Shown: positions 9,891 to 43,482 of the stretch, one piece after another | Layout of the letters: each line of letters opens with the position of its first letter | Numbering within the stretch: the first letter of the stretch is position 1 | Origin: Escherichia phage FEC14 | Reading direction: 5' to 3' (one strand) | Sequence record: MG383452 | Length of the DNA stretch: 64,000 nt | Program-made: the position numbers and the translations under genes | Notes under the pieces: model-generated | Seen by the model: only the letters and a program-made list of their open reading frames with translations | Database searches by the model: none | Told to the model about the DNA's origin: nothing

Positions 9891-10169
9891 TTACTGGCCG
9901 TTGGCAGCAGCTTTCAGACCTTCACCGACTTTGAATTTAACTACATTTTTCGCTTCGATCTGGATCTGTTGTCCGTTCAGCGGGTTGCGGCCAGTGCGCG
10001 CTTCCTGATGTTTAACTTCGAACGCGCCGAAGCCTACGAATTGGACAGATTGGCCAGCCGCGACTGCAGTTTTCACGCCATTGATAAAAGATGCAACGAT
10101 TTTCTCAGCTTCGCCTTTGGTCATACCCTGGGTTTGAGCGATGTGAGCGATAAAATCAGTACGGTTCAT
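9891..10169 (-). CDS. HU/IHF-family DNA-binding protein
   Basis: From internal Met (MNRTDFIAHIAQ...) aligns end to end with E. coli HU incl. FVGFGAFEV and RTGRNPLNG arm motif; track ORF has a 12-aa N-terminal extension judged spurious. Confidence 0.8.
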   Translation of the reverse strand: MNRTDFIAHIAQTQGMTKGEAEKIVASFINGVKTAVAAGQSVQFVGFGAFEVKHQEARTGRNPLNGQQIQIEAKNVVKFKVGEGLKAAANGQ

Positions 10170-10252
10170 TCGGATTACTCCAGTTAGTTGTTTACGATGT
10201 TTCACTACAAGAGGACTACAGCTTACCTAACAAATACTATTGAATAAAGCGT

Positions 10253-11047
10253 TTATTTGCCGACGTTTAGCATTTTACTTGAGCCTGAACCATCAACAAT
10301 CAGAGTACATTTCCCGCTGTTGGCGCAAGATTGCAACACCATGTTATATTCGTGTTGTAAATATTCAGGTGTCAGAGATGTCGTCAGTTTCTGATTCGCC
10401 CTGGCTTCTTGGTCTCGAATTTCAACGTTCTTTCTTGCTGTATCCAAACGTTTGTCGGCCATGACATTATCACGGATAGATTGCTCAATCGAAGGATCTG
10501 TCAGCGCCTTTTTGACCAACACGCGTGTGATTGTGAACATGCCAGGTGCAGCTGTTTCTAATTGCTGCTGGGTGCGTTCCTTGATCATCTTTTCTAACTC
10601 AGCCCGTTGGGTGTGAATTGTCATAGAATCCAAAGAGGAAACGGCGTCCATCGTTGAGGATGCTGCGGCGGTTTTAACCAGGTTGAATCCCACCGCTATC
10701 GTGCCGTCACCGAGTTCAGCGCTCTGACCTGCAAATTTGGTATGGAACCAAGGAACCTTCGCGACGTTCGGTGTGTAATAAACGTCCACATCCAGATCTT
10801 CCAAGGTCAGGTTGTCTTTGGCCTTTGGCGTCATTTTCGTCAGACTCACAACGGCTTCTTTGGTCGTGTAAACATCCACGCTTGAAACAAAGCTGGTGTA
10901 GATCCCCGCTGTTACAGGGTTCATGTCTACTTCACCCCATTGGGTGCGAACGCCGACATTACCTTCATCGATAACGCCACCACAACCAGAAAGTAGACTT
11001 GCAGCCAGAACCATAATTGCACCAAACACCAATTTCTTGAACATCAA
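10253..11047 (-). CDS. lipoprotein (264 aa), possible SPFH/band-7-like
   Basis: Signal peptide with lipobox LLSGC read in translation; downstream fold assignment is a guess. Confidence 0.55.
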   Translation of the reverse strand: MMFKKLVFGAIMVLAASLLSGCGGVIDEGNVGVRTQWGEVDMNPVTAGIYTSFVSSVDVYTTKEAVVSLTKMTPKAKDNLTLEDLDVDVYYTPNVAKVPWFHTKFAGQSAELGDGTIAVGFNLVKTAAASSTMDAVSSLDSMTIHTQRAELEKMIKERTQQQLETAAPGMFTITRVLVKKALTDPSIEQSIRDNVMADKRLDTARKNVEIRDQEARANQKLTTSLTPEYLQHEYNMVLQSCANSGKCTLIVDGSGSSKMLNVGK

Positions 11048-11262
11048 TGTACCCCTTCAAAAATGTAGATATATGCACCCAATGTGAGTGCAGTTATTGT
11101 AACCGAAGAAATCAGCAGTAGGAAAGTTACTCTCACCCGTTTGCGCCAACGTTTACTTCGGTAGATTTTAGTCTCTTTCAAGTATTTGAAAAAGAAAAAT
11201 AAAATGAATGTTGAAATTACGAATATGAACAGATAACGGATTAACCCGATCATATTTCCCAC
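11044..11262 (-). CDS. small membrane protein (72 aa, two predicted TM segments)
   Basis: Two hydrophobic stretches separated by a basic loop (KRWRKRVR); overlaps lipoprotein start. Confidence 0.4.
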   Translation of the reverse strand: MGNMIGLIRYLFIFVISTFILFFFFKYLKETKIYRSKRWRKRVRVTFLLLISSVTITALTLGAYIYIFEGVH

Positions 11263-11570
11263 CCTGTGCTACGCAGATGATCAAAATAATCGTTGAGTTC
11301 GTCAATATCTTCGATATCAACCCAACGATCATCCAGACCCATATCATTTAGATCTTCTTCAGTCAGATCATGTTGGTATATTTGAACGCCGGAAGCATTA
11401 CAATAATCCGGCTTGATGTTATTGTTATACTGAAACAGGTCGTAATCAGCCAGAGTATTCTTCAGGCGCTGCGCTTCTTCAAATGTTGGAACCTCAACAT
11501 GAAAAGCGATCCCAGGAACCTGGGGAATATGCCAAACGCGAAATTTAAGTTCAAACGGTTTATTCGACAT
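11250..11570 (-). CDS. hypothetical acidic protein (106 aa)
   Basis: Minus-strand ORF in co-oriented array. Confidence 0.4.
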   Translation of the reverse strand: MSNKPFELKFRVWHIPQVPGIAFHVEVPTFEEAQRLKNTLADYDLFQYNNNIKPDYCNASGVQIYQHDLTEEDLNDMGLDDRWVDIEDIDELNDYFDHLRSTGWEI

Positions 11571-11889
11571 GGGGTTCTCCCTGAGACAGTATGGTTTTCA
11601 TCTGTTCACGCGTGATAATTGTTTCAACAAGATTCTCGTCAATCATCATTTCGTTTAACAGTTCACAACCCAGCACGTGTGGTCGCGCCATATACGGCAT
11701 CGTGTTGAGTTTTTCTTCTATGTCAAGAACGCGCTTGACAGTCAGACCCATAGAAGAAAAGGGAACAGGATAAAAGAATGAAATGATCTGATTATCCATC
11801 CCGTTTGAAAATCTTACCAACAATACATCACACCATACGCCGGACATATTACACCTCCAGACGGTTACAATGAGAAAGCGCGTTATCAA
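11560..11889 (-). CDS. hypothetical protein (109 aa)
   Basis: Minus-strand ORF in co-oriented array. Confidence 0.35.
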   Translation of the reverse strand: MITRFLIVTVWRCNMSGVWCDVLLVRFSNGMDNQIISFFYPVPFSSMGLTVKRVLDIEEKLNTMPYMARPHVLGCELLNEMMIDENLVETIITREQMKTILSQGEPHVE

Positions 11890-12538
11890 TCTGTTCCCGA
11901 GACAGATATTCCAACGGGTTGCGAGAATACGCGTCTAACAGCAGCAGTTGGAGCACAGCGCGATTACGAGTTTCACTCTCCATCATGATACCGTTCATAT
12001 GTGGTGAACGGGCTGTCCATACAACATACTGACCTAAATCGTCGTTGGCAGTCAGGCTAATGCGAAACTGATTACACAATTTGTCGATTAACGCATAATC
12101 ATATGTGAACGTCCCTTCAGTTTTCCAGCTTGATTTCTTCACCTGAAGAGCTTCACCACGAGTTCTGAATTCTAACGTCACTCCATGAGTTTCATTGTCG
12201 AAATGAACAACTCTCTGAGTTTCATTTTTCAGAGTCCGGTTCATATTATGTACGAAGAAACGGGCGTCGATCTCCCTATTGCTCATGGAATTAAAATCGA
12301 TCGGCCAAAAACGAGCGCGCATAATCGCGCCTTCTGGCAATACAATTAGTCCATTTTCACGGGAGACATAGCAAAGACGTTTAACTGCAGGGTCAGGATG
12401 TTCCACACAATAAACGGAAATTCCAGTGGGAAGGATAGCGTGGGCGACAACACCAGATCTTTCAAAATATAAATTACCCTGGTCAGCCCCGATGATAATA
12501 CGGCTCTTGTTGTTCATAATACGGCTCTTGTTGTTCAT
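11849..12538 (-). CDS. hypothetical protein (229 aa) with duplicated N-terminus MNNKSRI-MNNKSRI
   Basis: ORF begins inside a perfect 21-bp tandem duplication that includes the ATG. Confidence 0.5.
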   Translation of the reverse strand: MNNKSRIMNNKSRIIIGADQGNLYFERSGVVAHAILPTGISVYCVEHPDPAVKRLCYVSRENGLIVLPEGAIMRARFWPIDFNSMSNREIDARFFVHNMNRTLKNETQRVVHFDNETHGVTLEFRTRGEALQVKKSSWKTEGTFTYDYALIDKLCNQFRISLTANDDLGQYVVWTARSPHMNGIMMESETRNRAVLQLLLLDAYSRNPLEYLSREQIDNALSHCNRLEV

Positions 12539-12541
12539 AAT
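12495..12541. repeat. perfect 21-bp tandem duplication (2 copies plus partial) spanning the start codon of the 11849..12538 gene
   Basis: ATAATACGGCTCTTGTTGTTC repeated head-to-tail, read directly. Confidence 0.7.
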
Positions 12542-12560
12542 ATAGATCTCTCAAATAAAA

Positions 12561-12581
12561 GGCGGTTTAATAATAACCGCC
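12561..12581 (-). terminator. hairpin GGCGGTT-loop-AACCGCC followed by U-run on minus strand
   Basis: 3' of the 12596..13390 ORF. Confidence 0.45.
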
Positions 12582-12595
12582 CTAATGTTATTGAA

Positions 12596-13390
12596 TTATT
12601 TTATATCACCGACATACATGTTCAAACTTTCATCCCATTCTAAACGAACACGAATAGTGCCAGAATCGTTTGGGAAAGACAATTTGTCGCACATATGACG
12701 ATTTGCATATGTTCCGCTCTTATTAACAGGATAATCTTTACCTTCACCGATTGCGAATCGTTTGAAGTTCCGACTCACCATCATATTGATGTTAGGCCAC
12801 TGCAATTGTTCCCGTAGGGTTTTGCACAATATAATCTTCCCATTAGACCGGAAAGACACGAATAAATCATTTGGTGAAGAAAATCGCCTTTCTTGCGGGC
12901 ATAATTGCCTGATTGAAATAAATTCAGATTCTTCTTTATTCTCAACTGGAGACTTCACGGGTTCTTCTTTTCGTTTTTCTGCATATTGCTCAACAGCCTT
13001 TTGGCTGACAGGCGGCAGATCAATAGAAGGGGAGATGACTGCGGGCTTAACGACTGGTGAAGTACGAGCAGCAACAAGTTTTTCCTGAGCTTCCAGAATT
13101 CTCTCTTGGCGAGATTTTGGTCGAGTATCAACCTTGGAGCTGAAATCACAAACCGTAACCCAATCACCCTGATCATTGCGCTTGGCAACCAGAGTCAGTT
13201 TATAGATGATGCCCTGCAGCTTGCTTTCGCGCATAGTGTCTGCGAACCAGAAAGCACAACCCTGCTCGAACTTTTCAGCGAAGATGACGCGTCCGTCTTC
13301 GTGAATCAGAATGACCTTTGCTTTGTTGGGCGCGAACATCTTATTCTTTTCAATGATCGATTCGGCGATCTTTTTGGTAATAATCATCAC
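12596..13390 (-). CDS. hypothetical protein (264 aa)
   Basis: Long minus-strand ORF; no motif recognised. Confidence 0.5.
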   Translation of the reverse strand: MMIITKKIAESIIEKNKMFAPNKAKVILIHEDGRVIFAEKFEQGCAFWFADTMRESKLQGIIYKLTLVAKRNDQGDWVTVCDFSSKVDTRPKSRQERILEAQEKLVAARTSPVVKPAVISPSIDLPPVSQKAVEQYAEKRKEEPVKSPVENKEESEFISIRQLCPQERRFSSPNDLFVSFRSNGKIILCKTLREQLQWPNINMMVSRNFKRFAIGEGKDYPVNKSGTYANRHMCDKLSFPNDSGTIRVRLEWDESLNMYVGDIK

Positions 13391-13437
13391 GAAGTATTTC
13401 CTTTCAGTTCAATGGAAGTTAAATTTTAACCTGAAAA

Positions 13438-13758
13438 TTATCTTTGATTTCCAACGAAATTAGTCGCTATTTCCCGACACATAGTCAGATCTTTGATCGT
13501 CTGTTTGCTATTGTCGGCAGCGGACTCCATCATTGGCAAATCCAAAGCATTCTCTATTTGATCCACGCTGTAGAGATCAAGGCGTTTCAACTCACCTTCA
13601 TAATCTGATAAAAGGATGGATGTATCTTTATCATCAGGGTGAAATTGTTGATAAGTAGACAACCAGGCCGCACACATATTCAATTTGCTAGCCGGAGTTG
13701 CCACAACTTGGAATGATGCCAACATAGAAAAGAATAACAAGAATATTATGTTTCTCAT
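13438..13758 (-). CDS. small secreted protein (106 aa, signal peptide)
   Basis: N-terminal MRNIIFLLFFSMLASFQVVA signal-like sequence. Confidence 0.5.
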   Translation of the reverse strand: MRNIIFLLFFSMLASFQVVATPASKLNMCAAWLSTYQQFHPDDKDTSILLSDYEGELKRLDLYSVDQIENALDLPMMESAADNSKQTIKDLTMCREIATNFVGNQR

Positions 13759-14444
13759 CTTTCGTTCTCCTTCATCATATTATCACAGTCAATTCTTGTT
13801 TGCTTGAGTTCACGGGCAAGCCTGGGATCATCAAGATTGACAGACAAATTAGTGGAAAGATCTTTCAAACCATTCTGAACACGGTCTTCATAATAATGAT
13901 CATTTTCCACCAGCCATGCTCTCAGGCCAAGGGCGCGAGTCCGCCATTCCTTTTTCAAACGTCGATCTGATTCTTGATCAGCACTGTATTCAAATACTCG
14001 GATACATTGGTTGCCATCATTGATGAGATCCAGCTGACGTCGGCCAACCTGCACACCTTTTTGTAATGCTGGAGAAGGAAGAGAACGGCACTGTCTTACG
14101 GTCATTCGTCCTTGTGTGCCCATACGACCAGTCATGATGAGATCGCCAGCCTCCATGCCTCCTCGATTAAATTCTTTGTCGTTCATATATCCTTTCAGGT
14201 TGAACGCGCCTTGCTTATATCGATTAAACTCAATACCAGCATTTACAACGGCATCTGTGACATTACCTGTGGCCCAGAGTTCAGCAAAGTTCTCTATGGA
14301 ACCAGTTTTGTCTATAGCGACGGCTTGGGAGAACCCAGCACAGTAGGAAAGATCAGACCACAGTTTTTCACCTGTGGAGTTCAGCTTGGCGGTGGCAGGA
14401 AGTGCCAGACCAGCCAGCACAACCCCGATGATTAAACGTTTCAT
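13755..14444 (-). CDS. secreted protein (about 229 aa from internal Met MKRLIIGVVLAGLALPATA)
   Basis: Signal peptide begins at internal Met preceded by GGAGA RBS; track ORF 13755..14609 has a 55-aa extension that overlaps the upstream gene. Confidence 0.5.
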   Translation of the reverse strand: MKRLIIGVVLAGLALPATAKLNSTGEKLWSDLSYCAGFSQAVAIDKTGSIENFAELWATGNVTDAVVNAGIEFNRYKQGAFNLKGYMNDKEFNRGGMEAGDLIMTGRMGTQGRMTVRQCRSLPSPALQKGVQVGRRQLDLINDGNQCIRVFEYSADQESDRRLKKEWRTRALGLRAWLVENDHYYEDRVQNGLKDLSTNLSVNLDDPRLARELKQTRIDCDNMMKENER

Positions 14445-14523
14445 GGTGATTCTCCTTATTTCATTGGATAAAATGATAGGGCTGTCACCATGTTGAGTAA
14501 AGGGTTTCAATAAACTATCGTAT

Positions 14524-14973
14524 TCAGAAACGGGTATCGCTGACCGTTCTGTATCGCACACCCTGAAACTGTTTAGCGAGTTTAACAAATTCCATCGCTG
14601 GCAAATCAACTTTGTAGACCTTCATGCGCTGTTTGCCGTCCATGTTCAACGCAGCGACAAATCGGTGAGACCCGTCAACAACGTAATTGTCAGAAGACAC
14701 CCAAACTCGACCCATGGGCTTCTTATTTCTGATCTGCTTCATAATCTTCCAGACCTTCATTTTATTGATTTCGTTCTGGGTAAGACGAAGCATTTTGATG
14801 GGCACTTGCGCAGCATCTATGGACACGCCGTTGTCTTCAAGATATTTGTGAAAATCTTCTTGTTTGTCGGCATCGATTTGCGGCATAGAAGAACGAGAAA
14901 GCCCGAGGTTCCCAACAGGAATCCTCAGGCCATTTATGATATTCATCCAGTCAATAAAGGATGTAAGGAACAT
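14524..14973 (-). CDS. hypothetical protein (149 aa)
   Basis: Minus-strand ORF. Confidence 0.45.
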   Translation of the reverse strand: MFLTSFIDWMNIINGLRIPVGNLGLSRSSMPQIDADKQEDFHKYLEDNGVSIDAAQVPIKMLRLTQNEINKMKVWKIMKQIRNKKPMGRVWVSSDNYVVDGSHRFVAALNMDGKQRMKVYKVDLPAMEFVKLAKQFQGVRYRTVSDTRF

Positions 14974-15010
14974 GACACACCTCGGGATATAGGGTTATCC
15001 CTTAGTTAGT

Positions 15011-15289
15011 TCATTCGGACTTAAACAGCAATTCGCGAACAGAAGTCCCAACGATATTTTGGGCGTTCAACAAACGAGTTAAATCATCCATGTCGTATGC
15101 TGAATTGGTGACATGGCCCAAGATAATCGCCAACATTCCCTCCAGCGCTCTCCGATTGTTATTCTCTTCAATGTCAAACTTAATTTCAACAAATCGAGAT
15201 AGCATTCTGGATTGAGCATGAGTTTCGTTGGTTTTGCTCTGTATAATATCTTTGATTTCCGAACGAGCAATACTTCTTTGATCTGTCAT
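15011..15289 (-). CDS. hypothetical protein (92 aa), MTDQ N-terminus
   Basis: ORF preceded by conserved GAAGGAA RBS cassette shared with the next gene. Confidence 0.45.
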   Translation of the reverse strand: MTDQRSIARSEIKDIIQSKTNETHAQSRMLSRFVEIKFDIEENNNRRALEGMLAIILGHVTNSAYDMDDLTRLLNAQNIVGTSVRELLFKSE

Positions 15290-15312
15290 GATATAGTTCC
15301 TTCATTTCAAAT

Positions 15313-15334
15313 GGGCGGGGCAAAGATACCCCGC
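15313..15334 (-). terminator. hairpin GGCGGGG-loop-CCCCGCC within a repeated 5'UTR cassette
   Basis: Inverted repeat between the 15342..15848 and 15011..15289 genes; near-identical copy near 15862. Confidence 0.4.
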
Positions 15335-15341
15335 CGTGGGT

Positions 15342-15848
15342 TTATAGGGTAACAAGTGATACGGTAAAAACCATCGTCCCATCTGTTGCCATTTTTCTTG
15401 AAACTGGGAAGACGCGAGGCTGACAGAATATCCATTCTTTCTCCATGGACGCCAAGTCCAGCATATCCATTTCTGATTCATCGCCTTTGTTCACAAATTT
15501 TTCTAGAGAACCAAAGACATTAAGCCCCTCTGGGAGTCCGTTTCGATGTTTATAACAAATGCGGGCAACAGCTTTGGTTCCATACGATTTAGAAAATTGT
15601 TTGGCCACATGCTTCAGTTCGCTGAAACTAAGACAAGAATCCCATGTCTGAAACATGTCTCCTCGTTCAAACATCATCTCCAAACGCGCAACGTCCTCTT
15701 TAGGCAACCCGCGATAAAGTGTGGTCATCTGCGGTTCGCGTAATTCTTGCACCAGACCACGGATGGCAGGGGAAACAGTGCCAGGGCGCATGATGTGGGA
15801 CTTATCATGGACGAGGTAAAATAAATCTTGAATTTGTTGATCGGTCAT
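15342..15848 (-). CDS. hypothetical protein (168 aa), MTDQ N-terminus
   Basis: Minus-strand ORF with the same upstream cassette as 15011..15289. Confidence 0.5.
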   Translation of the reverse strand: MTDQQIQDLFYLVHDKSHIMRPGTVSPAIRGLVQELREPQMTTLYRGLPKEDVARLEMMFERGDMFQTWDSCLSFSELKHVAKQFSKSYGTKAVARICYKHRNGLPEGLNVFGSLEKFVNKGDESEMDMLDLASMEKEWIFCQPRVFPVSRKMATDGTMVFTVSLVTL

Positions 15849-15861
15849 GATGTATTTCCTT

Positions 15862-15884
15862 CATTTCAAATAGGCGGGGTAATC
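15862..15884 (-). terminator. hairpin GGCGGGG-loop-CCCCACC, second copy of the repeated cassette
   Basis: Inverted repeat 3' of the 15908..16147 ORF. Confidence 0.4.
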
Positions 15885-15907
15885 ATACCCCACCCTAAGT
15901 TATAGAA

Positions 15908-16147
15908 TTAACTGATGTGCTTCAGAAGAGCGAAGAGGATCGCGGCCTTGGCTTTCACCTTTCCGACGACGCCTGTTTCGACGTCGACTTCTTCGGCAAC
16001 CCAATCTTTTCCCTTCTTGCTGATGATAACATCGCGGCGCTGGGCATATACTTCTTTGGTCGCATACACACGACGGAACCCTTTAGCGCGGAGCAAGCCC
16101 CAATTACGATCAATCTCCACTGAAGTTTCTACCATTTTGTTCTTCAT
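15908..16147 (-). CDS. hypothetical protein (79 aa)
   Basis: Minus-strand ORF. Confidence 0.4.
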   Translation of the reverse strand: MKNKMVETSVEIDRNWGLLRAKGFRRVYATKEVYAQRRDVIISKKGKDWVAEEVDVETGVVGKVKAKAAILFALLKHIS

Positions 16148-16237
16148 GATATAATCTTACCTTTCAACCTGGTGAACCCATCGTTCGCCAGTTATTGAAT
16201 AATACGCATTTGCCTTATAGAAGTAAACCCCTAAAAG

Positions 16238-16263
16238 TAAAAATCCCCAACGTTTGTTGGGGA
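16238..16263 (-). terminator. hairpin ATCCCCAAC-loop-GTTGGGGAT followed by TTTTTACTTTT on the minus strand
   Basis: Strong inverted repeat plus U-run directly 3' of the ACP-like gene. Confidence 0.55.
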
Positions 16264-16270
16264 TCTTCAG

Positions 16271-16603
16271 TTACTTGCGCAGGGCAACCACGTATTCGGC
16301 AAGTTCACCCATGGTCGGGTCGTCGCCTTTACCGCCCAGCCAGCCATCAGAGATCTCGACATTGAACTCTTCTTCTAGTTCCATGACGATTTCGATGGCA
16401 TCAAGATCGTCGCCGCCGAGGTCTTTCTTGGTGCGGAGGCCAGCCAGTTTATCCAGGGCGTCATTCATAATCACTTCCGCGTCGACGATGCCTTTGATGC
16501 TGCTCTTGTCTTCGTCACTGACTTCCAGGTTCAGATTGTCAGTGGCGTACTGAGCCAGGTGACGCATTACTTCAACATAAGTTGGTTTGTTTGACATAAG
16601 CAT
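16271..16603 (-). CDS. acyl-carrier-protein-like protein with Asp in place of the phosphopantetheine-attachment Ser
   Basis: DLGGDDLDAIEIVMELEEEFNVEISD aligns with E. coli ACP [26 protein letters not shown]; the conserved Ser is Asp here. Confidence 0.6.
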   Translation of the reverse strand: MLMSNKPTYVEVMRHLAQYATDNLNLEVSDEDKSSIKGIVDAEVIMNDALDKLAGLRTKKDLGGDDLDAIEIVMELEEEFNVEISDGWLGGKGDDPTMGELAEYVVALRK

Positions 16604-16606
16604 ATC

Positions 16607-16626
16607 TCAAAATGAAGGCGGGTTTC
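16607..16626 (-). terminator. hairpin GGCGGG-loop-CCCGCC 3' of the vWA gene
   Basis: Inverted repeat between the vWA stop and the ACP-like start. Confidence 0.4.
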
Positions 16627-16640
16627 CCCGCCAGTTGAAT

Positions 16641-18893
16641 TTAGATTTTGACTTCTTTTTCAGCCAGTTCGGCAGTGACAGTGTATTTCACCCCATCAAC
16701 TTCCACATCCATAGTGGATTCTTCCAAATCCAGGTCGGTAAACCAACCATGGCCTGCAACAATCCCATAAACTACCTTGGACAGCGTTTTGTTCAGAGAT
16801 CGAACTTCGTTGATAGCTGCTTTTGCTGCATCACCAATCCAACTTTCGATCAGCTTTTTCTGAGTCTCTTCCGGTACGCTGGTGATCATCGGCGATTTAA
16901 CAAACGCATTGTATTCGGCCAGGGCATTAGCGATCAGCTGATCAGCGACATTCAGTTTTTTACCGTCCGTCTGTTTTTTGATAACAGACGCGATGCTCGG
17001 CAGTGAAGATGCGCCTTTGATTTTCACATTCAATTCACGACTCATATAGACATCGGTTGATTCTACAGAAGAAGTCTTCGGTGAAAATCCATAGTCGCGA
17101 ATGCCGTTTGCTGACAGGAAATCAGCCGCTTCTTTGCCATATTTTGAAGCCAGACCAGTAGCGTTGCCTTTGCCAACCAGTTCATCACGGTAGAATTTCA
17201 GAACTTTTTGCTTTGCCTTCAATGCTTCACGGCGCACATTGTCTGCAAAGAATTCAGCAGCACTGATATTCTTTGTCATGGCGCGGTTAACCATTGGGAC
17301 ACTTTCCAGATTTACAATGAAGACTTCCGGCCCACCAAACACATGAACACCCATGGCAGTCAAATCCTGTGCCACCTTAGCCCGAATAATCGGAGAATCT
17401 GCAGTGATAGGCATTGTTTTCAGGTTGATGATACCATCCTTGACAATGGTGTAATTGCGATAACGCCAGGTTCCCAGCTCTTCAGGAAGTTCATATTTCT
17501 TCTGTACAAACTCAGGCACAACAACCGTTCCGTGTTGAACTGTCTGCACACTGATGTTAGGACGTTCTGAATTGTAGACCAAATTGCTGATCGGGACAAT
17601 CCCTTTATCATCTGCTGGATTGAATTCGGGGGTCCAATCTTCGTGCTCGGCCAGTTTGAGCGCCAGGGCTTTACGCTCTTCTTTAGAAGTCGCATTCGCA
17701 ATCTCTTCGGCCAACTTGTCTTCGGTGTCATCAACTTTCTGTACAGTACCGCGCCCAATGCTCTTGTAAGAGAATAGCGGATGCTTAGTGACAATAGAGA
17801 CATCTGCTTCAGCCAGATACGTCAGAACATCAACAATGGTGGTGGCGTCTTCAGCCGGAACCATATTATAATCGATGCCATCAACTCCTCGCAGAGATTC
17901 GTCTACGATAGCCTGGGTCAGATCGACTTTGATGTTGGAATAGTCCTGCTTGGTGAAACAGTTGCTGTATTGTTTGATGAAGCGGACGTCACCCGTTTTC
18001 TTCAGCGCAGCCCAAACCAAATCTGCGTCCATGGTATACACGCCGTAAAATGCCAGCACGTATGCCGCTTGGATGTCTGCCAGATTATCCAGCTGGTCGA
18101 TCATGTTGGGGTTTACAACCCACAGCTGAGAAACGCTTTCAGGGATGCTGACGTGGCCAATAGGGTGCTCTTCATCAGGATGCACAGCTAAAACAGTCGC
18201 CACGCCATTTTCAACATAAATGGCATGGGTGTAAACCAGGGGAACATCGACCACCACTTTCGGTGAAGAAGTTTTTAGCACGTTTTCCAATTCGGTCTGA
18301 TATTCATTCTGGCCTTCGGCGAATACGTGGGTCGCACCAGAACGTTCTGCCATTAGCGCCAGCAGTTCGCGATTACAATACCAACCGTATTCGATGAAGG
18401 TAATGTTATCAAACGCTTTGGGCAGTACTTCAGCGGCATCCAGGATTTCATTAGAACGCCAGCAGTTGTCATATCCGTCAGTCATGAATGCCAGGTTATT
18501 AACATAACCAGGTTTATTCAGGCTAATGGCAGTTTCCGCAGCCAATTTCAGCGGCTCAACAAAACCAGTACAACCAGAAGGCTTCAGGAAACGGTCAATT
18601 AGATTATTGATCTCAGTGAGATCAGTTGCACTGTTAATCTGACGTCCGGCAAATACCGTTCCGAAATCACCGCGAGATGAAAAGTAAAGGATGCTCACAG
18701 TATCTTCCGGTTTCACCAGGGAAGGCAGGTTCTCCTTCAGATGCTTACGGACTTCTGGAAGTGAACGATACATGGAACCGGAGATATCCACAACGATTAC
18801 ATGGTTAGACGGCGCGACGGTCGCAACCGCATTCTTAAATGTTAATGATTCAATCATCGTTATTACCTTCTTTAGTGGTATGGACGGCTTCAC
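16641..18893 (-). CDS. von Willebrand factor A (vWA) domain protein (about 740 aa)
   Basis: N-terminal MIDAS-type motif VIVVDISGSM plus downstream Thr/Asp positions typical of vWA; likely true start at MIESL (about 18857), coupled to an upstream small ORF. Confidence 0.65.
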   Translation of the reverse strand: MKPSIPLKKVITMIESLTFKNAVATVAPSNHVIVVDISGSMYRSLPEVRKHLKENLPSLVKPEDTVSILYFSSRGDFGTVFAGRQINSATDLTEINNLIDRFLKPSGCTGFVEPLKLAAETAISLNKPGYVNNLAFMTDGYDNCWRSNEILDAAEVLPKAFDNITFIEYGWYCNRELLALMAERSGATHVFAEGQNEYQTELENVLKTSSPKVVVDVPLVYTHAIYVENGVATVLAVHPDEEHPIGHVSIPESVSQLWVVNPNMIDQLDNLADIQAAYVLAFYGVYTMDADLVWAALKKTGDVRFIKQYSNCFTKQDYSNIKVDLTQAIVDESLRGVDGIDYNMVPAEDATTIVDVLTYLAEADVSIVTKHPLFSYKSIGRGTVQKVDDTEDKLAEEIANATSKEERKALALKLAEHEDWTPEFNPADDKGIVPISNLVYNSERPNISVQTVQHGTVVVPEFVQKKYELPEELGTWRYRNYTIVKDGIINLKTMPITADSPIIRAKVAQDLTAMGVHVFGGPEVFIVNLESVPMVNRAMTKNISAAEFFADNVRREALKAKQKVLKFYRDELVGKGNATGLASKYGKEAADFLSANGIRDYGFSPKTSSVESTDVYMSRELNVKIKGASSLPSIASVIKKQTDGKKLNVADQLIANALAEYNAFVKSPMITSVPEETQKKLIESWIGDAAKAAINEVRSLNKTLSKVVYGIVAGHGWFTDLDLEESTMDVEVDGVKYTVTAELAEKEVKI

Positions 18894-19020
18894 CTTCCGG
18901 CTTCGCCAGCATGTGTTCTATGAATTCGCGATTAGTTTCAATCTGTTGGATTAAAACTTCGCTGGGTTTAAACTGTGAGTCAAGAGAGTCAACTCCTGAA
19001 CGCAAAAATGGTTTGGTCAT
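18856..19020 (-). CDS. small ORF (about 55 aa) whose stop overlaps the vWA start (ATGA); not in the supplied track
   Basis: Hand translation MTKPFLRSGVDSLDSQFKPSEV...; boundaries approximate. Confidence 0.3.
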
Positions 19021-19021
19021 A

Positions 19022-19381
19022 TCAATTCCCTTTCACTTCCATGACACCAGAAATATTCTTCAGGGCTTCACGGACTTCCGACGCCTTATCTTTCTTTACA
19101 ATCACAACAATGAAAGAAAAGTTCTTTTTCTTACGCCAATTCTTGAAATGAGTGACCAACTGGATATCTTTCTCTTCAGCACCACTTTCTCCAGCTACAG
19201 GGATATAAACTGTGCCTGACTCAATTACGACATCAGCATCGTCTGGAATATTTTCATCGAGTTCTTCACGGTATTCTCCATTAACTTTGACGCAATGATC
19301 ATCGTGCCAAGCACCCTTTTCCCAATATTCGTCATCGTTATAGTAGGCGTTGAATTCAACACCTTTCATTTTTACGGACAT
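19022..19381 (-). CDS. hypothetical acidic protein (119 aa)
   Basis: Minus-strand ORF. Confidence 0.45.
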   Translation of the reverse strand: MSVKMKGVEFNAYYNDDEYWEKGAWHDDHCVKVNGEYREELDENIPDDADVVIESGTVYIPVAGESGAEEKDIQLVTHFKNWRKKKNFSFIVVIVKKDKASEVREALKNISGVMEVKGN

Positions 19382-19481
19382 GATTTCCTCGCTTTACAAT
19401 TGGACCATTATACCTTGGCTTGTTAATTGAAACGCCCAGCAATTTGCCGGACGTTATTGATTTTGAAAGACTTTTGAAGAA

Positions 19482-20207
19482 TTACAAGTAGGACACCACG
19501 ATGGCTCTATACAGCGCCCCCACGGAATCATCAGGTTCGGCTTTCGGATCTAACAAGAATTTCTTAACACGATCACAAGCTGCTTGGCGTTTGTCTTCTG
19601 ATAGGTCACACCACGGATAATCCCCTGAAGCAGCATTACACGTTTTCGCCAAACGCAAGACAAGTTCAGAATTTAGTTCTTCAGAAGTCATGAACGAGCG
19701 AAGATACGCTTCCACCAAAGATCTTGCTTCACCATTACGTCGTTCGTTATAACGTTCATTATCGGTGCGAACAAATTCAACTCGAAATCCCCGACTTGGA
19801 TCCTTGGGATGACGAAACACGACGGATTGTCCTTTACCCTTAAGGAATTCAGAACCACCCATCTCATGTATCGCTTCCCTTTCTGACACATATTCATCAA
19901 TGTTGATCTTAGCATCTTTGACGGACACATCGATGATCTGCTTTTCTACCATCGCGCGATATGCTTCTAGTTCCCACAGCTGGGAGAAGGTCTTTTCATA
20001 GGCCAGTTTCTTACCCAACTCTTCATCAAAGTTGGCTGGGTCGATAGAAGTTGAACTATTCTTACCCCACACAACGAACCCATTGTCCATCTTGAAATGG
20101 CATGTAATGACGCGGTGACCACCAACTTCACGGTCTTCATAAATCACTTCAGCAATATGTGACTTCAGAAGTTCTGGTGTGAGTTTAATCCCTTCACGAT
20201 TACCCAT
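19482..20207 (-). CDS. hypothetical protein (241 aa)
   Basis: Minus-strand ORF. Confidence 0.5.
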   Translation of the reverse strand: MGNREGIKLTPELLKSHIAEVIYEDREVGGHRVITCHFKMDNGFVVWGKNSSTSIDPANFDEELGKKLAYEKTFSQLWELEAYRAMVEKQIIDVSVKDAKINIDEYVSEREAIHEMGGSEFLKGKGQSVVFRHPKDPSRGFRVEFVRTDNERYNERRNGEARSLVEAYLRSFMTSEELNSELVLRLAKTCNAASGDYPWCDLSEDKRQAACDRVKKFLLDPKAEPDDSVGALYRAIVVSYL

Positions 20208-20451
20208 TATTCACCCCCACTTTCACCAAACGATCCAGTAATTGGTAAATCTTGCGGGGACAACGCCTTAAATCTTCATCCGACAGATATAGCACTTCGG
20301 TCTGAATATCTTTAAAAGTTGAAAGGTTATTCAACTCAGATTCGACGACGGTTTTCAATTGCGTATACGCTTCATCGCAATAATTTCGGCGGTTGCAATC
20401 GGTCATTACCTGAGATAACTTTTCAAAAGATTCTTGTATTTCCTTTGACAT
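20200..20451 (-). CDS. hypothetical protein (83 aa)
   Basis: Minus-strand ORF. Confidence 0.4.
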   Translation of the reverse strand: MSKEIQESFEKLSQVMTDCNRRNYCDEAYTQLKTVVESELNNLSTFKDIQTEVLYLSDEDLRRCPRKIYQLLDRLVKVGVNNG

Positions 20452-20860
20452 CGTTTGACACCTCTAGTTGGTCACACACAGATATTACTTTACGGCACGT
20501 GTCGATATCGAATAAACCGATATGGCAGTCGCGTTTCTTGATCCCCAGATTATGAGCCAGCCAGCTGTAAGCATCACTCCTGCTCCTCTGCCCACTTTTC
20601 CAGATAGGGTCAAACGACCTATGAGCTTCCTGCTTAGCAGCACGGAGAGCGGCATTCGCCATCCTTCCCAGAGGTTGTCTACCATCCCCATGGGTATGGC
20701 AACCCACACGAGCGTCGCATGGCGAGCATACCCAAAACTTCAGTTTGTGTAGATCTGGGCGATGAGGGTAGAGTACATCACCCCCGACGTATTTGGCAGG
20801 AAGGCCGCAGTAATCACAGATGACAGGTTTCATATTCTTTGTCCAAAAGAAACCCCGCAC
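20423..20860 (-). CDS. Cys-rich zinc-ribbon protein
   Basis: Paired Cys motifs CDYCG...CSPCDARVGCH...C...C. Confidence 0.4.
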   Translation of the reverse strand: MRGFFWTKNMKPVICDYCGLPAKYVGGDVLYPHRPDLHKLKFWVCSPCDARVGCHTHGDGRQPLGRMANAALRAAKQEAHRSFDPIWKSGQRSRSDAYSWLAHNLGIKKRDCHIGLFDIDTCRKVISVCDQLEVSNDVKGNTRIF

Positions 20861-20892
20861 ACGGCGGGGTTGCTCAGGCCGGAGCCGACAGA

Positions 20893-21264
20893 TTATTTCA
20901 ACAGAGCTTCCAGTTCTTCAAGAGATTTACCTTCAAGCTCCTGCTGTTTCTTACGCTGGATCAGTTCCAGAATAACCTGGTTGTTCGCTTTACGTTCGGC
21001 GGCGGTTGCGCTTTCGTCACGTTCTTTCAGTTTAACACCGATGATCGCTTTCACGATATCGAAACGCAGTTGTAACTGAGAGTCGACTGCGCTTTTCACG
21101 CCGATGAAATCTTCTTCATCGCTGGCGGCTTCCTTCACCTGACGGCTGAGGTCTTTCGCCAGTTCGTTTAGGGCATTCAGGTTCAGATCCCAAACCTGCT
21201 CAACAGATAGCAGACCTTTGTTAGAGTTGAAACGCAGTTTTAAACGGGTTGCTTGATCAAACAT
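20893..21264 (-). CDS. hypothetical coiled-coil protein (123 aa)
   Basis: Minus-strand ORF; heptad-like charged sequence. Confidence 0.45.
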   Translation of the reverse strand: MFDQATRLKLRFNSNKGLLSVEQVWDLNLNALNELAKDLSRQVKEAASDEEDFIGVKSAVDSQLQLRFDIVKAIIGVKLKERDESATAAERKANNQVILELIQRKKQQELEGKSLEELEALLK

Positions 21265-21301
21265 TTCATTGTTCCTTATTACGAATTTGTGGTCAAATCA
21301 A

Positions 21302-23320
21302 TTAGAAGATGACTTTTACAGTACGGTTAAACGCGCCGGACACTTTGACGAACACGTGGTTGCGTTGCGTCGTTGAGAATCCCAGACCGGACAGTTGGTT
21401 TTCATTCGGCTGGACTTTCATTTTACTACCCAACATTTCAAAAACCTTACGATGTTTATCCAGTTCCGGCTTCAGATATTCGTTGTAGAAACCACGAGTA
21501 CCTTCAGGATTAGCACAGCCTTCAAGAATGAAGAACACATGCTTGTTACCAGTTTGCTCCCCATCCCAATGGTTTGGTGAATTCAGAACCAGCTGTACTT
21601 TCTGGAAGGTCGCAGTCTTGATACCCCAAACTTCTTTAGACTTATCAACATTAGCCAGTTCGGACTTAATGCTAACGACTTGTTTGTCTTTAACAGTCAG
21701 GATGACTGCAGTGATACGCCCCTGATCTTTCAGGCCAGGATGGCTGAAACGATGCGTTGCGCCTTTGTATTCTACTTCGACTTCAAACCCTTCGTCGATC
21801 TTTTCACGTTGATTGTAGTTGTGGATTTCGAAACGGTATTCACCATCGCGCAGCTTGCTTTCATCTGTAAAGATGATATTTTCCACCGGAGCGCGGTTTG
21901 GATCAATACCATCCATACCGTTCATATCGATATCCAGATGGGCACCTGTCATAGAGCGACGATCACGGAAGTACACGTGCTCCATATTGTTAAAGAACAT
22001 ATGAAGATCGAGGTCGTCGTTATTGTGCCACGCCAAGGAAACGCGCAGATACCCGTCAACTTTACCACCAGCAGCCTTTACACGTTCTTTAATGGAATCG
22101 GTCACTTCACCGTTGTAAGACCAGGAGAACCCGTTGTTCCACTTGAACAGGTTAGGCGCATCTGGGTTCGCCGGAGCAACCAGGGACATCAGGTTGCTAG
22201 TATGAGAATTCTCTACAAGCACTTCCATTGAATGCGCTTTTGGCAGAACATTGCTCAGGAAATCATCAACGCTGATCTCTTCAACTTTTTCCAGGGACTT
22301 GGTCGGAGTTTTCACTTCGGCGGCCAGCTGTGCAAACGGATCCATCGCTTTCTGAGCAGCCAGATCTGCGAACAGAACGTTGTTGATTGTCAGATCATCG
22401 TAAACCGCATAACGACGCGCCAGTGAGTCTTCCAAACCCAGAGCAATAACTTCTTTCTGAGCGTTTTCGATCATGGATTTTGAAACCAGCGCTGTCGGAC
22501 GTTTGTAGTTCGCCGGAGCAACTTTGGATTCAAACGATTTAACAGCCTTTTCCAGTTCCACGCCTTCGCTGATATCTGTCAGCAGAGTGCCGATAACTGT
22601 GTTACGGATGCCGTGTGGAACATGATTGTTTGAACGGTATCCAGTATGCCATGCCCACAGAGAACGGGCTGATTCGGGGATTTGTTCATACGCTTTTTTG
22701 GTTTCAACAAATCCCTTCACTGCTGCTTTGTGTTCTGCGCCGCGATACAGAGAATTCTGGTCAATCAGTTCCAGAACGATTTCAGCTGATTCCAGAGTAA
22801 TTTCACGCAGACCGCGTTCAAACAATTCAATAGCCTGGCGGATTTCACCTTTTTTCGAAGCGATTGCGTCCGGACGCAGAACATAGCTACCCAGCAGGTC
22901 GGTGTGGAAGTGGTTGTAGGTGCGGACATTGCCGTCTTTCATTTCGTGATTCGACTCAACACCGACTTTCTTGGTATCGTTGAAGTACACGTCGACGATT
23001 ACGTGTTGCTTGACATACGCAGACAGCGCCGCAGCCACCACGTCATATTCATTACCCAGATCAATGTTGTCCCAGATAGAAATTACGTTCAGGTCGGAGT
23101 CGATGGTGATCACACCGCCGATGTTACGGATGAATTGTTTACAGCAGGTGCAGTCGTGCTCAGTACGCTCACGGTAGAGCGGGTTGGTACCAGCAGGGAA
23201 AGATGCCAGATACAGATCCCAAAGAGCATCTTTATCGATATTGGTCATGAACAGACCAGTTGCGGACATCGCCAGCACGTTGTTATTAACTGCCGTTGCG
23301 AAGGGTTTGAATTCTGCCAT
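21302..23320 (-). CDS. large uncharacterised protein (672 aa)
   Basis: Long uninterrupted minus-strand ORF; no family recognised by eye (no polymerase B, ligase or Walker motifs). Confidence 0.6.
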   Translation of the reverse strand: MAEFKPFATAVNNNVLAMSATGLFMTNIDKDALWDLYLASFPAGTNPLYRERTEHDCTCCKQFIRNIGGVITIDSDLNVISIWDNIDLGNEYDVVAAALSAYVKQHVIVDVYFNDTKKVGVESNHEMKDGNVRTYNHFHTDLLGSYVLRPDAIASKKGEIRQAIELFERGLREITLESAEIVLELIDQNSLYRGAEHKAAVKGFVETKKAYEQIPESARSLWAWHTGYRSNNHVPHGIRNTVIGTLLTDISEGVELEKAVKSFESKVAPANYKRPTALVSKSMIENAQKEVIALGLEDSLARRYAVYDDLTINNVLFADLAAQKAMDPFAQLAAEVKTPTKSLEKVEEISVDDFLSNVLPKAHSMEVLVENSHTSNLMSLVAPANPDAPNLFKWNNGFSWSYNGEVTDSIKERVKAAGGKVDGYLRVSLAWHNNDDLDLHMFFNNMEHVYFRDRRSMTGAHLDIDMNGMDGIDPNRAPVENIIFTDESKLRDGEYRFEIHNYNQREKIDEGFEVEVEYKGATHRFSHPGLKDQGRITAVILTVKDKQVVSIKSELANVDKSKEVWGIKTATFQKVQLVLNSPNHWDGEQTGNKHVFFILEGCANPEGTRGFYNEYLKPELDKHRKVFEMLGSKMKVQPNENQLSGLGFSTTQRNHVFVKVSGAFNRTVKVIF

Positions 23321-23433
23321 GGTATAGTCTTCCTGTTTCAGTTCAAAGTGAGCGCCCTTATCGGGGCGCGTCGTTAAAGTGAGGTCAATATATACGTTGA
23401 AAAAGTTATTGAAGAACGAAGTAACGCGATTCT

Positions 23434-24690
23434 TTATTCAGGTTTCTTCAAACGATCTAATAAATTGACCGATCCGCGATTGAGGACAATTTCATCGCAT
23501 CGATTTTTGTATCTCCCGCCTCCATCATAACCGACCTTGCCGCGTGGCTTTTCCCCTCTCTCGATAGCCTCAACACAGCGGGTGTACTTGCTCAATTCAC
23601 AGAACATGTTCTCCAGCTGCATGACGTTCATGCACTGATCTTCCGGCGCTTCGGCTGACCAGAACTGCTCTTGGACATAACCATACTGAGCAAACAATTG
23701 ATACTGATGATCACGAACCCAGAATATGCATTCTTCATGAGTCATGCCGTCCTTATCCAGGAACATCAGGTCAATACCCGCACGGCAACCTGGACCAGCA
23801 ATAGTGAAATGATTCTCACTGAATGGATATTCATCGATGTATGTAAAATCAACCCAAATCTGGTATGCCAAGAATGGTCCAAGCCCCTCAATGTCGTCAT
23901 ACATCGCCTGGTAAACAGAGTCGGGACGGCTAAATTCCCTGAGGCGATCAAAGTAATGAGGGTGTTTGTTGACGAATGCCTTCAAAGAGCGAATGACTCG
24001 CATCGGCATGTATGGTTCCCAGCCTTCTATTTTGTATTCACCAGGATTATCTTCGGCCAGCTTCTTGGCAACCTTGTAATCCATTTCATCTATAACACCA
24101 CCCACCCGATGGACTTTTACCTTCATGCCGCCAAAGCGTTGCTCCTTATGGTTGACAACCAGTTCAGGGAAAGCTAGGCATTGTTTCAGACCGCCTGTAT
24201 TAAACGCATTGGTGAAAACTTTGCCACCTTTAGATTCGAATTCCTGAAGAACATCTCGACACCATTCAAGATTTATGTTTCCGAATTCTTCGATCGTCCA
24301 TGGACCACCCAAAGCCTGTATAGGTTCCCACATGTTGTACATGCGGAACAATACACAGTTAAACATTTTGTCAGATAGCGTGAGATCCTGATCGAGGATG
24401 ATATTATTGATCAAATTTCGAGACTGCCTATCGTGCTCTCTCCGGACGTTACAGAACTTGACCTGCCGTAGTATGGGATTATCCGTCCAAGGAGCAGGAA
24501 GACGCTGGACGTCCTTTCTCACGTGGATCTTATAACGCTCGCTCATCCATTCGTATGCGAGTTGTTTATGGAATGGGCTTAACATGGGATGTGCAGATTT
24601 AATTTTAACTTCCCGAACACCGCAATAAGGAATGTCACACGGTTTATCTTTCATGGTATCCTCTCTAGAATACAAAAAAACAGAGGCCAT
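23434..24690 (-). CDS. uncharacterised protein (418 aa)
   Basis: Long minus-strand ORF; no family recognised. Confidence 0.6.
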   Translation of the reverse strand: MASVFLYSREDTMKDKPCDIPYCGVREVKIKSAHPMLSPFHKQLAYEWMSERYKIHVRKDVQRLPAPWTDNPILRQVKFCNVRREHDRQSRNLINNIILDQDLTLSDKMFNCVLFRMYNMWEPIQALGGPWTIEEFGNINLEWCRDVLQEFESKGGKVFTNAFNTGGLKQCLAFPELVVNHKEQRFGGMKVKVHRVGGVIDEMDYKVAKKLAEDNPGEYKIEGWEPYMPMRVIRSLKAFVNKHPHYFDRLREFSRPDSVYQAMYDDIEGLGPFLAYQIWVDFTYIDEYPFSENHFTIAGPGCRAGIDLMFLDKDGMTHEECIFWVRDHQYQLFAQYGYVQEQFWSAEAPEDQCMNVMQLENMFCELSKYTRCVEAIERGEKPRGKVGYDGGGRYKNRCDEIVLNRGSVNLLDRLKKPE

Positions 24691-24725
24691 TATAGCCTCT
24701 GTTGTTTAGTGAATAACGGATTATA

Positions 24726-26076: not shown

Positions 26077-26105
26077 GACTCATACCCCTTTAACAATTAT
26101 TTGAA

Positions 26106-26528: not shown

Positions 26529-26532
26529 AATA

Positions 26533-27522: not shown

Positions 27523-27552
27523 TGCAGCCTCTTTAGATAAAACGTTTCAAAG

Positions 27553-27569
27553 GGCGGGGAAACCCCGCC
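27553..27569 (-). terminator. hairpin GGCGGGG-AAA-CCCCGCC followed by U-rich tract on the minus strand
   Basis: Inverted repeat 3' of gp45, 5' of gp44. Confidence 0.45.
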
Positions 27570-27599
27570 ACCGATAATAAAGCACCGAATCGTTATTGA

Positions 27600-28973: not shown

Positions 28974-28978
28974 AATGG

Positions 28979-34723: not shown

Positions 34724-35188
34724 TTACAGATCTTGGCACTGATCGCAATATTCGTCGTATGTGAATGTCTCATCACACAGACCGTCACGCATCATATTGG
34801 CCTTGGCTTCGCCAAATATTTTCAGGGTGATAACGTTGCCGCCTAAATCTTTACGAAGTTCGTTCGGCTTGGTTTCTATGAAGTCGAACACCACAAAGAA
34901 CCCTTCGGTGACATATTTGATGGTTTTGTTGCTCAGCTTACGAATGCCACCGTTCTTTTTGAAGATAGAGGTGCGGAGGTTTTCGAATTCAGCCAGGTTG
35001 TCATCGTGATTCTTGATAGCGTTCAGCATTGCGTCAAGGTCGATTTCAGGACGAAGCATTTTGACCTGATCTTCGCGGTCATAAGAAGTGAAAGATTCTA
35101 TGTTGGTGATGCCCAGAGCGTTCTTAACAAACGCGTCAAATTTGGTGAAATTGTTGAATGCCCAGACGGAGATTTTTACGGTTGTCAT
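34724..35188 (-). CDS. hypothetical protein (154 aa)
   Basis: Minus-strand ORF. Confidence 0.5.
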   Translation of the reverse strand: MTTVKISVWAFNNFTKFDAFVKNALGITNIESFTSYDREDQVKMLRPEIDLDAMLNAIKNHDDNLAEFENLRTSIFKKNGGIRKLSNKTIKYVTEGFFVVFDFIETKPNELRKDLGGNVITLKIFGEAKANMMRDGLCDETFTYDEYCDQCQDL

Positions 35189-35244
35189 GGTGTAGTTCCT
35201 TCATTTCAGAGTCAGTGTTGTGCTGCTTATGGAATGAAGTATAC

Positions 35245-37071: not shown

Positions 37072-37126
37072 TTTAACCTCCTTTGATAAATGAGGCTTTA
37101 TTATCTTACATATCCCTATAAAGAAA

Positions 37127-37146: not shown

Positions 37147-37165
37147 TGTTATCAAAACCTGTCGC

Positions 37166-43452: not shown

Positions 43453-43482
43453 TCAATAACTCAAATCAATAAGACAAAGGAA

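Follow-up and report, generated by a model that had tools for sequence, protein, structure and literature searches.

Why should two adjacent, unrelated genes of one phage both begin behind almost the same 70 nucleotides? The case arises in Escherichia phage FEC14 (sequence record MG383452), of which a stretch of 64,000 nucleotides, hereafter the window, was analysed. A segment consisting of a G/C-rich hairpin, a Shine-Dalgarno (SD) sequence and the first codons of a gene, referred to here as the cassette, precedes an open reading frame (ORF) of 92 amino acids (copy A) and, again, an ORF of 168 amino acids (copy B). A first, sequence-only reading had described this as a duplicated expression cassette with diverged coding bodies. 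In our view, the cassette is probably a portable junction between genes that doubles as a recombination joint, akin to the promoter-early stem-loops (PeSLs) of T4-like phages (see below) but promoterless and limited to one locus. The window belongs to a Kuttervirus (Vi1-like phage; Ackermannviridae), and the 6 kb that were compared are 98% identical to Escherichia phages PhaxI and CBA120 as well as to many Salmonella Kuttervirus phages, with 276 matching records in all. All genes around the locus are encoded in tandem on the minus strand: a 79-aa gene, the 168-aa gene for a predicted ADP-ribosyltransferase (ART), the 92-aa gene and then further genes.

An ungapped comparison yielded a direct repeat of 65 nt (15278-15342 versus 15837-15901) with 83% identity and a spacing of 559 nt, which is the longest direct repeat within the window. 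Gapped local alignment lengthened it to 70 nt (15278-15347 and 15837-15905, minus strand) with one 1-nt gap, running from CTATAA to the fourth codon in ATGACNGATCAA. The score of this alignment was 78, compared with 15.8 +/- 2.3 (maximum 25) in 500 shuffles and 42 for the next-best site in the window outside both copies, and blastn within the window recovered the repeat core at E = 3.5e-10. The near-identity originally noticed over about 45 nt is thus real, and extends over 70 nt at about 83% identity. Each copy contains, in order, CTATAA, a G/C hairpin of 9-10 bp, ATTTGAAATGAAGGAA and ATGACNGATCAA, and the 16-mer ATTTGAAATGAAGGAA occurs exactly twice in the window, once in each copy. The hairpin first described as GGCGGGG...CCCCGCC for both copies is exact in copy A, while the 5' arm in copy B, before the 168-aa gene, reads GGTGGGG and forms one G-U pair. 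Segments of 71 nt from the two copies fold at -22.7 and -21.1 kcal/mol, with z values of -4.3 and -3.0 against shuffled controls. Both contain AAGGAA, 7 nt and ATG as SD sequence and start codon, and only about 25 nt separate the hairpin from the ATG. The similarity is neither confined to the ribosome-binding site nor within the range of chance, but runs through the hairpin, the spacer, CTATAA and codons 2-4.

The coding sequences behind the two copies gave a different picture. Both ORFs do begin with MTDQ, as had been read, but no BLASTP match was obtained between the 92-aa and the 168-aa protein even at E <= 100, and the two are assigned to phrog_4458 and phrog_832, respectively. Since the proteins do not align and belong to different PHROG families, we conclude that no gene has been duplicated, and that the arrangement is best described as a repeated junction flanking an optional gene. 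What survives of the duplicated cassette is therefore the hairpin, the initiation region and four codons, which are present twice beyond chance expectation; the coding bodies are unrelated rather than diverged. Homologues of the 92-aa protein in other phages begin with MVDPQ, MTPSE or MKKDE, and within the ART family the start MTDQQIQ and the C-terminal VTL-stop are conserved down to 55% identity. The MTDQ common to the two ORFs is a coincidence or a short conversion tract, not the remnant of a duplicated gene.

We compared the interval that follows the 79-aa gene, referred to as the slot, in the window and in 20 further loci from GenBank and IMG/VR (numbered with the prefix L). The 79-aa gene and the first cassette were present in all loci compared, and the hairpin was kept at the slot even where the 79-aa protein was only 77% identical. 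The content of the slot fell into six forms, counting as one the cargo-less form found before either of two genes. The ART gene, a second cassette and the 92-aa gene are found in the window, PhaxI, CBA120, bering and L019, and the ART gene with a second cassette stands before an unrelated 124-aa gene in Agtrevirus MK-13 and L006. The denV gene (pyrimidine-dimer glycosylase, UV repair), with no second hairpin, occupies the slot in Vi01, Dickeya phage RC-2014, L009, L010, L016-18 and L119. There is no cargo in EP75 (L013) and L015, where a single cassette lies right before the 92-aa gene, nor in L007, L008, L101 and L143, where it lies right before the 124-aa gene; all cargo-less loci carry one hybrid cassette. 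In L012, a 55%-diverged ART gene ends 10 nt from the next gene, with neither hairpin nor second cassette, and in L014 a different short ORF follows the single cassette. The ART and denV forms are each present in both subfamilies; ART is encoded by 76 records of the phage collection, 65 of which are Ackermannviridae, and denV of the Ackermannviridae type by about 100. The denV end with the next ribosome-binding site, CAATTYTGAAGAGRCTATATCATG (Vi01, L003 3490-3530; L005 3490-3520), resembles the post-hairpin part of the cassette, CCATTTGAAGAGACTATATTATG (L143 4577-4625); the denV module may also lie between two cassette-derived segments, of which the second has no hairpin.

Pairs of closely related loci with different slot contents provided the footprints of exchange. 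Between bering and EP75, the flanks were 97% and 95% identical on the two sides of a 559-nt indel, and 46 nt of EP75 aligned equally well to both bering cassettes, the pattern expected when direct repeats recombine or when a circle integrates through one of them. Likewise, MK-13 and L007 differed by a clean indel with a 50-nt overlap within the cassette, and in the comparison of Vi01 with EP75 the denV gene was flanked by a 12-nt direct repeat, CTATATCATGAC, which equals the cassette tail. On a larger scale, the window and the Agtrevirus-like contig L006 share a block of 979 bp (15286-16264) that is 96% identical, compared with 76% in the flanks. One end of this block is the terminator hairpin behind the acyl-carrier-protein gene and the other is the start codon that follows copy A; beyond this codon the window has the 92-aa gene and L006 the 124-aa gene. 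The L006 flank is closest to those of pSal-SNUABM-02, Ag3 and MK-13 (Agtrevirus), and the 79-aa protein of the window is 99% identical to that of MK-13 and 97% identical to that of the Dickeya phage, but only 90% identical to that of Vi01, which belongs to the same genus as the window. We interpret the block of about 1 kb as having moved recently between subfamilies.

Exchange also appears to have occurred between the copies within a genome. The SD segment tends to be common to both copies of one genome, TGAAGGAA in the lineage of the window and TTGCAGGAACTATATC in bering, whereas orthologous SD segments differ between genomes, as gene conversion between the copies would produce. Two loci (L006 4811-4843; bering, L011 4812-4843) have an inverted hairpin loop in their second cassette, with TAATCATA replacing TATGATTA and the palindromic stem kept. 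The inversion amounts to a small flip at the palindrome, an event at the DNA level.

According to the mechanism that we propose, each cassette would set a stable stem-loop right after a stop codon, followed by an A/U-rich single-stranded stretch, the SD sequence and a start codon. The hairpin would probably insulate the ribosome-binding site behind it from any coding sequence in front, and may in addition weakly attenuate transcription or protect 3' ends. At the DNA level, the comparisons above show that the repeat offers the recombination machinery of the phage 46-70 bp of homology on both sides of the 559-bp unit. Recombination between the copies would delete the ART gene and leave one hybrid cassette, whereas the opposite event, or an exchange with a relative infecting the same cell, would insert or replace a gene. 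Recombination at the repeat would in this manner explain why different Ackermannviridae carry ART, denV or no gene in the slot, why one left-hand module adjoins either of two right-hand genes, and why a block of about 1 kb that ends at the cassette has moved between subfamilies.

The hairpin itself is well preserved. The nine stem pairs were formed in 99.5% of 207 cells from 23 distinct cassettes, and all 16 one-sided stem changes produce G-U or U-G pairs on the coding strand, where the other strand would have A-C mismatches; one change breaks a pair. One stem pair runs through G-C, G-U and A-U among the relatives. The maintenance of pairing through G-U on the coding strand suggests that selection acts on an RNA hairpin formed in the sense transcript. 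In this respect, and in the position of a G/C-rich stem of 9-10 bp just after the stop codon, the cassette resembles intrinsic terminators and the intercistronic stem-loops that stabilise transcripts. A strong intrinsic terminator was nevertheless rejected on three counts. Firstly, the tail after the stem, AUUUGAAAU or ATTTGAAA, has 3 U (T) in 8 nt, compared with at least 5 in most U-run terminators of the window, and scored 0.9-1.5 compared with about 2-4.4; the score follows the formula of d'Aubenton Carafa 1990, and only the ranking of the tails was used, the d-score being sensitive to where the stem is taken to end. Secondly, a terminator scan listed the typical U-run hairpins of the window and neither of the cassette hairpins. 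Thirdly, the TransTerm-style annotation of phage Matapan marks the acyl-carrier-protein hairpin as a terminator and not the cassette hairpin. The cassette hairpin may attenuate transcription weakly.

The closest parallel is with the PeSLs of the T4-like phages RB49/phi1, T4/PST and KVP40/nt-1, which consist of an intergenic stop codon, a stem-loop (often GGGG...CCCC), a sigma-70 promoter, an SD sequence and a start codon (Arbiol et al. 2010, PMC2839356; Comeau et al. 2014, PMC4122927). They border small, dispensable genes, which they allow to be inserted, deleted or replaced by way of mini-circle intermediates (PMC2839356, PMC4122927). The cassette shares with them the upstream stop codon, the stem-loop of a G-run and a C-run and, at the 3' end, the SD sequence with the start codon of the gene that follows. 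It also flanks small non-essential genes, and the gains, losses and swaps of genes among the relatives cross over inside the element. A gene with one element is furthermore what a circle excised between the copies would contain. Unlike a PeSL, the cassette has no sigma-70-like pair of -35 and -10 hexamers, so that the module would not be self-expressed; it is present in two full copies at one locus rather than in dozens over hyperplastic regions; its stem-loop ends in a weak U-tail; and it is found in the Ackermannviridae. Because it has no recognisable promoter and no dispersed copies, two defining features, we regard the cassette as a variant that works like a PeSL and not as a member of that class.

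The idea of regulatory cassettes as linkers for modular gene shuffling, developed for T4-like phages, is thereby extended to Ackermannviridae: the evolutionary principle is known, the family and the promoterless form are new, and the case is well supported. It would follow that a promoter is unnecessary for such a joint, and that a stem-loop with a ribosome-binding site suffices. The joint would also explain how near-identical Kuttervirus genomes come to differ in content, with a UV-repair glycosylase, an ADP-ribosyltransferase or neither. Ackermannviridae are widely used to detect Salmonella, E. coli O157 and Dickeya and to control them biologically. For phage engineering, the cassette would mark a natural, tolerated insertion site at which foreign genes find a ready-made, context-insulated translation start. 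In lambdoid phages, exchangeable genes are also said to be bordered by short conserved stretches between genes, and Clark and co-workers reportedly proposed in 2001, for phage HK620, that such 'boundary sequences' serve as recombination linkers; we mention this as a lead only, and these sequences come from another phage group and are not known to have the architecture of a hairpin plus a ribosome-binding site.

Several observations weigh against the cassette as a recombination joint with a role in RNA. The cassette is not dispersed: by blastn, PhaxI-type genomes hold two places, and in IMG/VR the 17-mer of the hairpin is found at this slot only, as opposed to a dispersed family. The covariation score of the stem was reached by 59 of 500 shuffles, so that the statistical support from covariation is weak, the cassette sequences being close relatives. 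No transcript data for any Ackermannviridae phage were found in the literature searched, so that the roles in RNA are inferred. Not every local indel uses the cassette, as illustrated by orf136 of CBA120 (L002 about 5945-6240, in reversed orientation; corresponding to about 14530 in the window), an extra small gene in place of the final codons of the 149-aa gene. We rejected orf136 as a second cassette-mediated event, as its edges carry no repeat of the hairpin or the ribosome-binding site. Some of these patterns could also arise, with no special part played by the cassette, through ordinary homologous recombination in the conserved neighbouring genes, which does contribute.

A further objection concerns the promoter. 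Within the loop of the hairpin lies a hexamer resembling a -10 box (copy A has TATCTT, Vi01 has TATTAT, and most cassettes have TATGAT), and TTCTATAA is conserved upstream, so that a non-consensus or phage-specific promoter in the cassette would be compatible with the data. The cassette could then be a true PeSL, with a working promoter whose -10 box is TATGAT in the loop or TCTATAA, with self-expressed modules and with a hairpin that terminates upstream transcripts. Stem-loops of PeSLs are typically of the G-run/C-run type and often lie over the -10 box or between -35 and -10, and the early promoters of the phages considered here have never been identified. The octamer TTCTATAA is invariant in the copies after the 79-aa gene in loci of the Kuttervirus, Agtrevirus and Limestonevirus types, where the adjoining 4-5 nt vary, although not in the most divergent loci, and it occurs 7 times in the window compared with 2 expected (0 of 100 shuffles reached 7). 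The sites are at 15900-15907, 16215-16222, 28338-28345, 63747-63754 and three more positions, several of them intergenic and beside hairpins or promoter-like sites; TTCTATAA could be part of an unrecognised promoter or of another signal. On the other hand, none of the 40 promoter-like sites that a sigma-70 consensus scan returned for 10000-29000 lies within either cassette, and inspection by eye of the -10-like hexamers (TATGAT in the loop, TATAAC/TATAAA upstream and TCTATAA) found no -35 hexamer above 3/6 at 16-18 nt. The inverted loops TAATCATA of L006 and bering have moreover lost the -10-like hexamer, the hairpin lies very close to the ATG, and CTATAA in copy A is coding sequence and stop codon of the ART gene. 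We therefore consider a true PeSL unlikely. The literature searched mentions no PeSL-like elements, mapped promoters or mapped terminators for Ackermannviridae.

The two copies could alternatively be independent instances of standard intergenic punctuation, a generic terminator hairpin with a consensus ribosome-binding site, which have converged and play no part in recombination. Hairpins of the type GGCGGGG...CCCCGCC followed by TTTGAAA are indeed also found at 27553 and 16617, a 26-mer of the ribosome-binding site recurs at 35183, and spacers resembling CTATATCATG precede start codons 12 times compared with 4.6 expected. Yet the identity of the two copies extends through positions with no obvious function, namely the spacer between hairpin and SD sequence, CTATAA and codons 2-4, and the alignment score stands far above that of the next-best site. 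The clean indels with overlapping alignments and the hybrid cassettes demonstrate shared descent and exchange, and convergence is largely refuted and must be judged very improbable.

Equally little speaks for a site-specific system in which the hairpin is the target of a dedicated nuclease or recombinase, so that a structure-specific enzyme encoded by the phage moves units of an ORF plus a hairpin between co-infecting Ackermannviridae through an active recombination site. Integron gene cassettes consist of a promoterless ORF and an attC hairpin, are read from an upstream promoter and are excised as circles. The movable unit at the slot is comparable in being a promoterless ORF with one hairpin site downstream of a promoter, and its excision would give a circle. 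The inverted loop of the palindrome in two lineages and the hairpin retained at the locus even beside a 79-aa protein of only 77% identity point in the same direction, and homing-endonuclease genes are present in the region in some relatives (a NUMOD3 protein in ChubbyThor). Were such a system real, a virulent phage would be moving gene cassettes in the manner of an integron, and its footprints would be the loop inversions, two in number and independent, together with the persistence of the hairpin at this one locus across genera. However, neither an integrase nor an endonuclease gene lies within the slot of the window or next to it, and the denV module has no second hairpin. The crossover points vary from pair to pair (46, 50 and 12 nt, at differing places within the cassette), as predicted for homology-driven exchange, and we give movement by a dedicated enzyme hardly any credence. 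A tandem duplication of cassette and gene, with coding bodies diverged beyond recognition, could draw on the MTDQ starts and on the 12 nt of identity inside the ORFs, but is as good as dismissed by the failed alignment at E <= 100, by the different lengths and PHROG families, by the motifs, fold and Erwinia jumbo phage homologues of ART, and by the occurrence of the 92-aa family elsewhere without ART and with other starts.

Table 1. Features of the cassette locus and of related sites in the window
Feature	Position	Strand	Remarks
Cassette copy A	15278..15347	minus	between ART gene and 92-aa gene
Copy A, CTATAA	15342-15347	minus	last Leu codon and stop of ART; ORF ends GTTACC CTA TAA, then ACCCAC
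Copy A, hairpin GGCGGGGTA-TCTT-TGCCCCGCC	15314-15335	minus	
Copy A, ATTTGAAATGAAGGAA	15297-15312	minus	after C; then CTATATC
Copy A, ATGACAGATCAA	15278-15289	minus	start of 92-aa ORF
Cassette copy B	15837..15907	minus	between 79-aa gene and 168-aa ART gene
Copy B, TTCTATAA	15900-15907	minus	after TAA of 79-aa ORF; then CTTA before hairpin
Copy B, hairpin GGGTGGGGTA-TGAT-TACCCCGCCT	15872-15895	minus	
Copy B, ATTTGAAATGAAGGAA with SD sequence	15856-15871	minus	then AATACATC
Copy B, ATGACCGATCAA	15837-15848	minus	start of 168-aa ORF
Movable unit			ART gene plus one cassette, 559 nt
168-aa R-S-ExE ADP-ribosyltransferase (ART) gene, predicted	15342..15848	minus	cargo gene, optional among relatives; phrog_832, motifs, predicted fold
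92-aa gene	15011..15289	minus	phrog_4458 (family without known function); one of two alternative right-hand neighbours of the slot
79-aa gene	15908..16147	minus	conserved left-hand neighbour of the slot, inside the 96%-identical block
Promoter-like site TTTACT-17-TATTAT	16199..16227	minus	upstream of 79-aa gene; 9/12 consensus matches, sequence only
Terminator-type hairpin with U-run	16238..16269	minus	downstream of acyl-carrier-protein gene; left edge of 979-bp block
Related hairpin GGCGGGGTTTCCCCGCC, then CTTTGAAA	27553..27569	minus	upstream of another gene; CCCCGCCTATTTGAAA in some relatives
Partial third copy, initiation part only (CTCTGAAATGAAGGAACTACACCATGACA)	35183..35211	minus	no matching hairpin; upstream of 154-aa ORF

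The cargo gene of the window is predicted to encode a small R-S-ExE ADP-ribosyltransferase. The protein matches phrog_832, 'RNA polymerase ADP-ribosylase', at 1.1e-15, a name that is also used in RefSeq and that is an annotation transferred by homology. The catalytic motifs YR46G, LS74FS and E136-K-E138 (EKEW) are invariant in 9 homologues, down to 55% identity. A sequence search against the PDB gave nothing significant, and a fold search was used instead: the model (pLDDT 70) had HopU1, C3bot and Certhrax as top Foldseek matches in the PDB (E 1.5e-4 to 2e-3, TM about 0.4), with ExoS/T also among the best. The protein resembles Alt, ModA and ModB of T4 in its R-S-ExE motifs, in its predicted ART-like fold and in being a small phage protein encoded among small genes mostly without known function, but differs from them in being only 168 aa long and in having no significant sequence match to a solved structure. 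Homologues are also found in Erwinia jumbo phages, and many relatives have a member of the 92-aa family without an ART gene.

Upstream of the 79-aa gene, the TTTACT-17-TATTAT site sits directly after the terminator-type hairpin, the equivalent of which is annotated as a terminator in Matapan. The site is likely to be the start of a transcript that runs through both cassettes. Pfam searches with five local proteins gave the acyl carrier protein as the sole match, and an Rfam scan of 14500-16800 at E <= 1 returned no family. The acyl-carrier-protein gene (16271-16603, minus strand) is itself mosaic, with amino acid identities of 100% to PhaxI, 64% to CBA120 and 61% to Vi01, while CBA120 and Vi01 are otherwise 96-98% identical in this region. 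Just downstream of the slot, a conserved 149-aa gene (14524-14973, minus strand) contains the motif DGSHRF and has a weak ParB-like PHROG match (E 0.0016); its product may be a nuclease-like protein with a ParB/Srx fold.

A search for more copies, which had been suggested along with the duplication, found no third full copy in the window and one partial copy of the ribosome-binding site, at 35183-35211. The corresponding part, GAAATGAAGGAACTAYAYCATGA, recurs before the 154-aa ORF, and Klebsiella phage Menlow (L140 2440-2525) has the same upstream gene end, hairpin and ribosome-binding site in front of a different gene; the region may be a second gene-swap joint. By blastn, third places were found in Dickeya phages and MK-13. 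A scan of IMG/VR with the loose 16-mer CCCCGYCNATTTGAAA gave mostly chance matches in unrelated contigs, and only those with a matching 5' arm were kept. Two IMG/VR contigs had a second match, in both cases at the hairpin preceding the homologue of the window gene at 27553.

Other repeated signals were seen elsewhere in the window. A direct repeat of 38 nt with CTAAATACCCC, 95% identical between 61426-61463 and 63661-63698 (minus strand), lies just downstream of terminator-type hairpins and looks like a phage-specific, perhaps late, promoter motif; for the Vi1-like phages, the late-promoter consensus has been reported as unidentified. The 3' end of the ART gene, TATCACTTGTTACCCTATAA (about 15342-15366), and the intergenic TATCACTTGTTCTATAA (28338-28358), both on the minus strand, have in common an 11-mer followed by CTATAA. 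Finally, four near-identical palindromic terminator hairpins, AAACCCCGCCGAAGCGGGGTTT, are readable on both strands (37120-37152, 43476-43508, 58603-58635 and 63710-63742).

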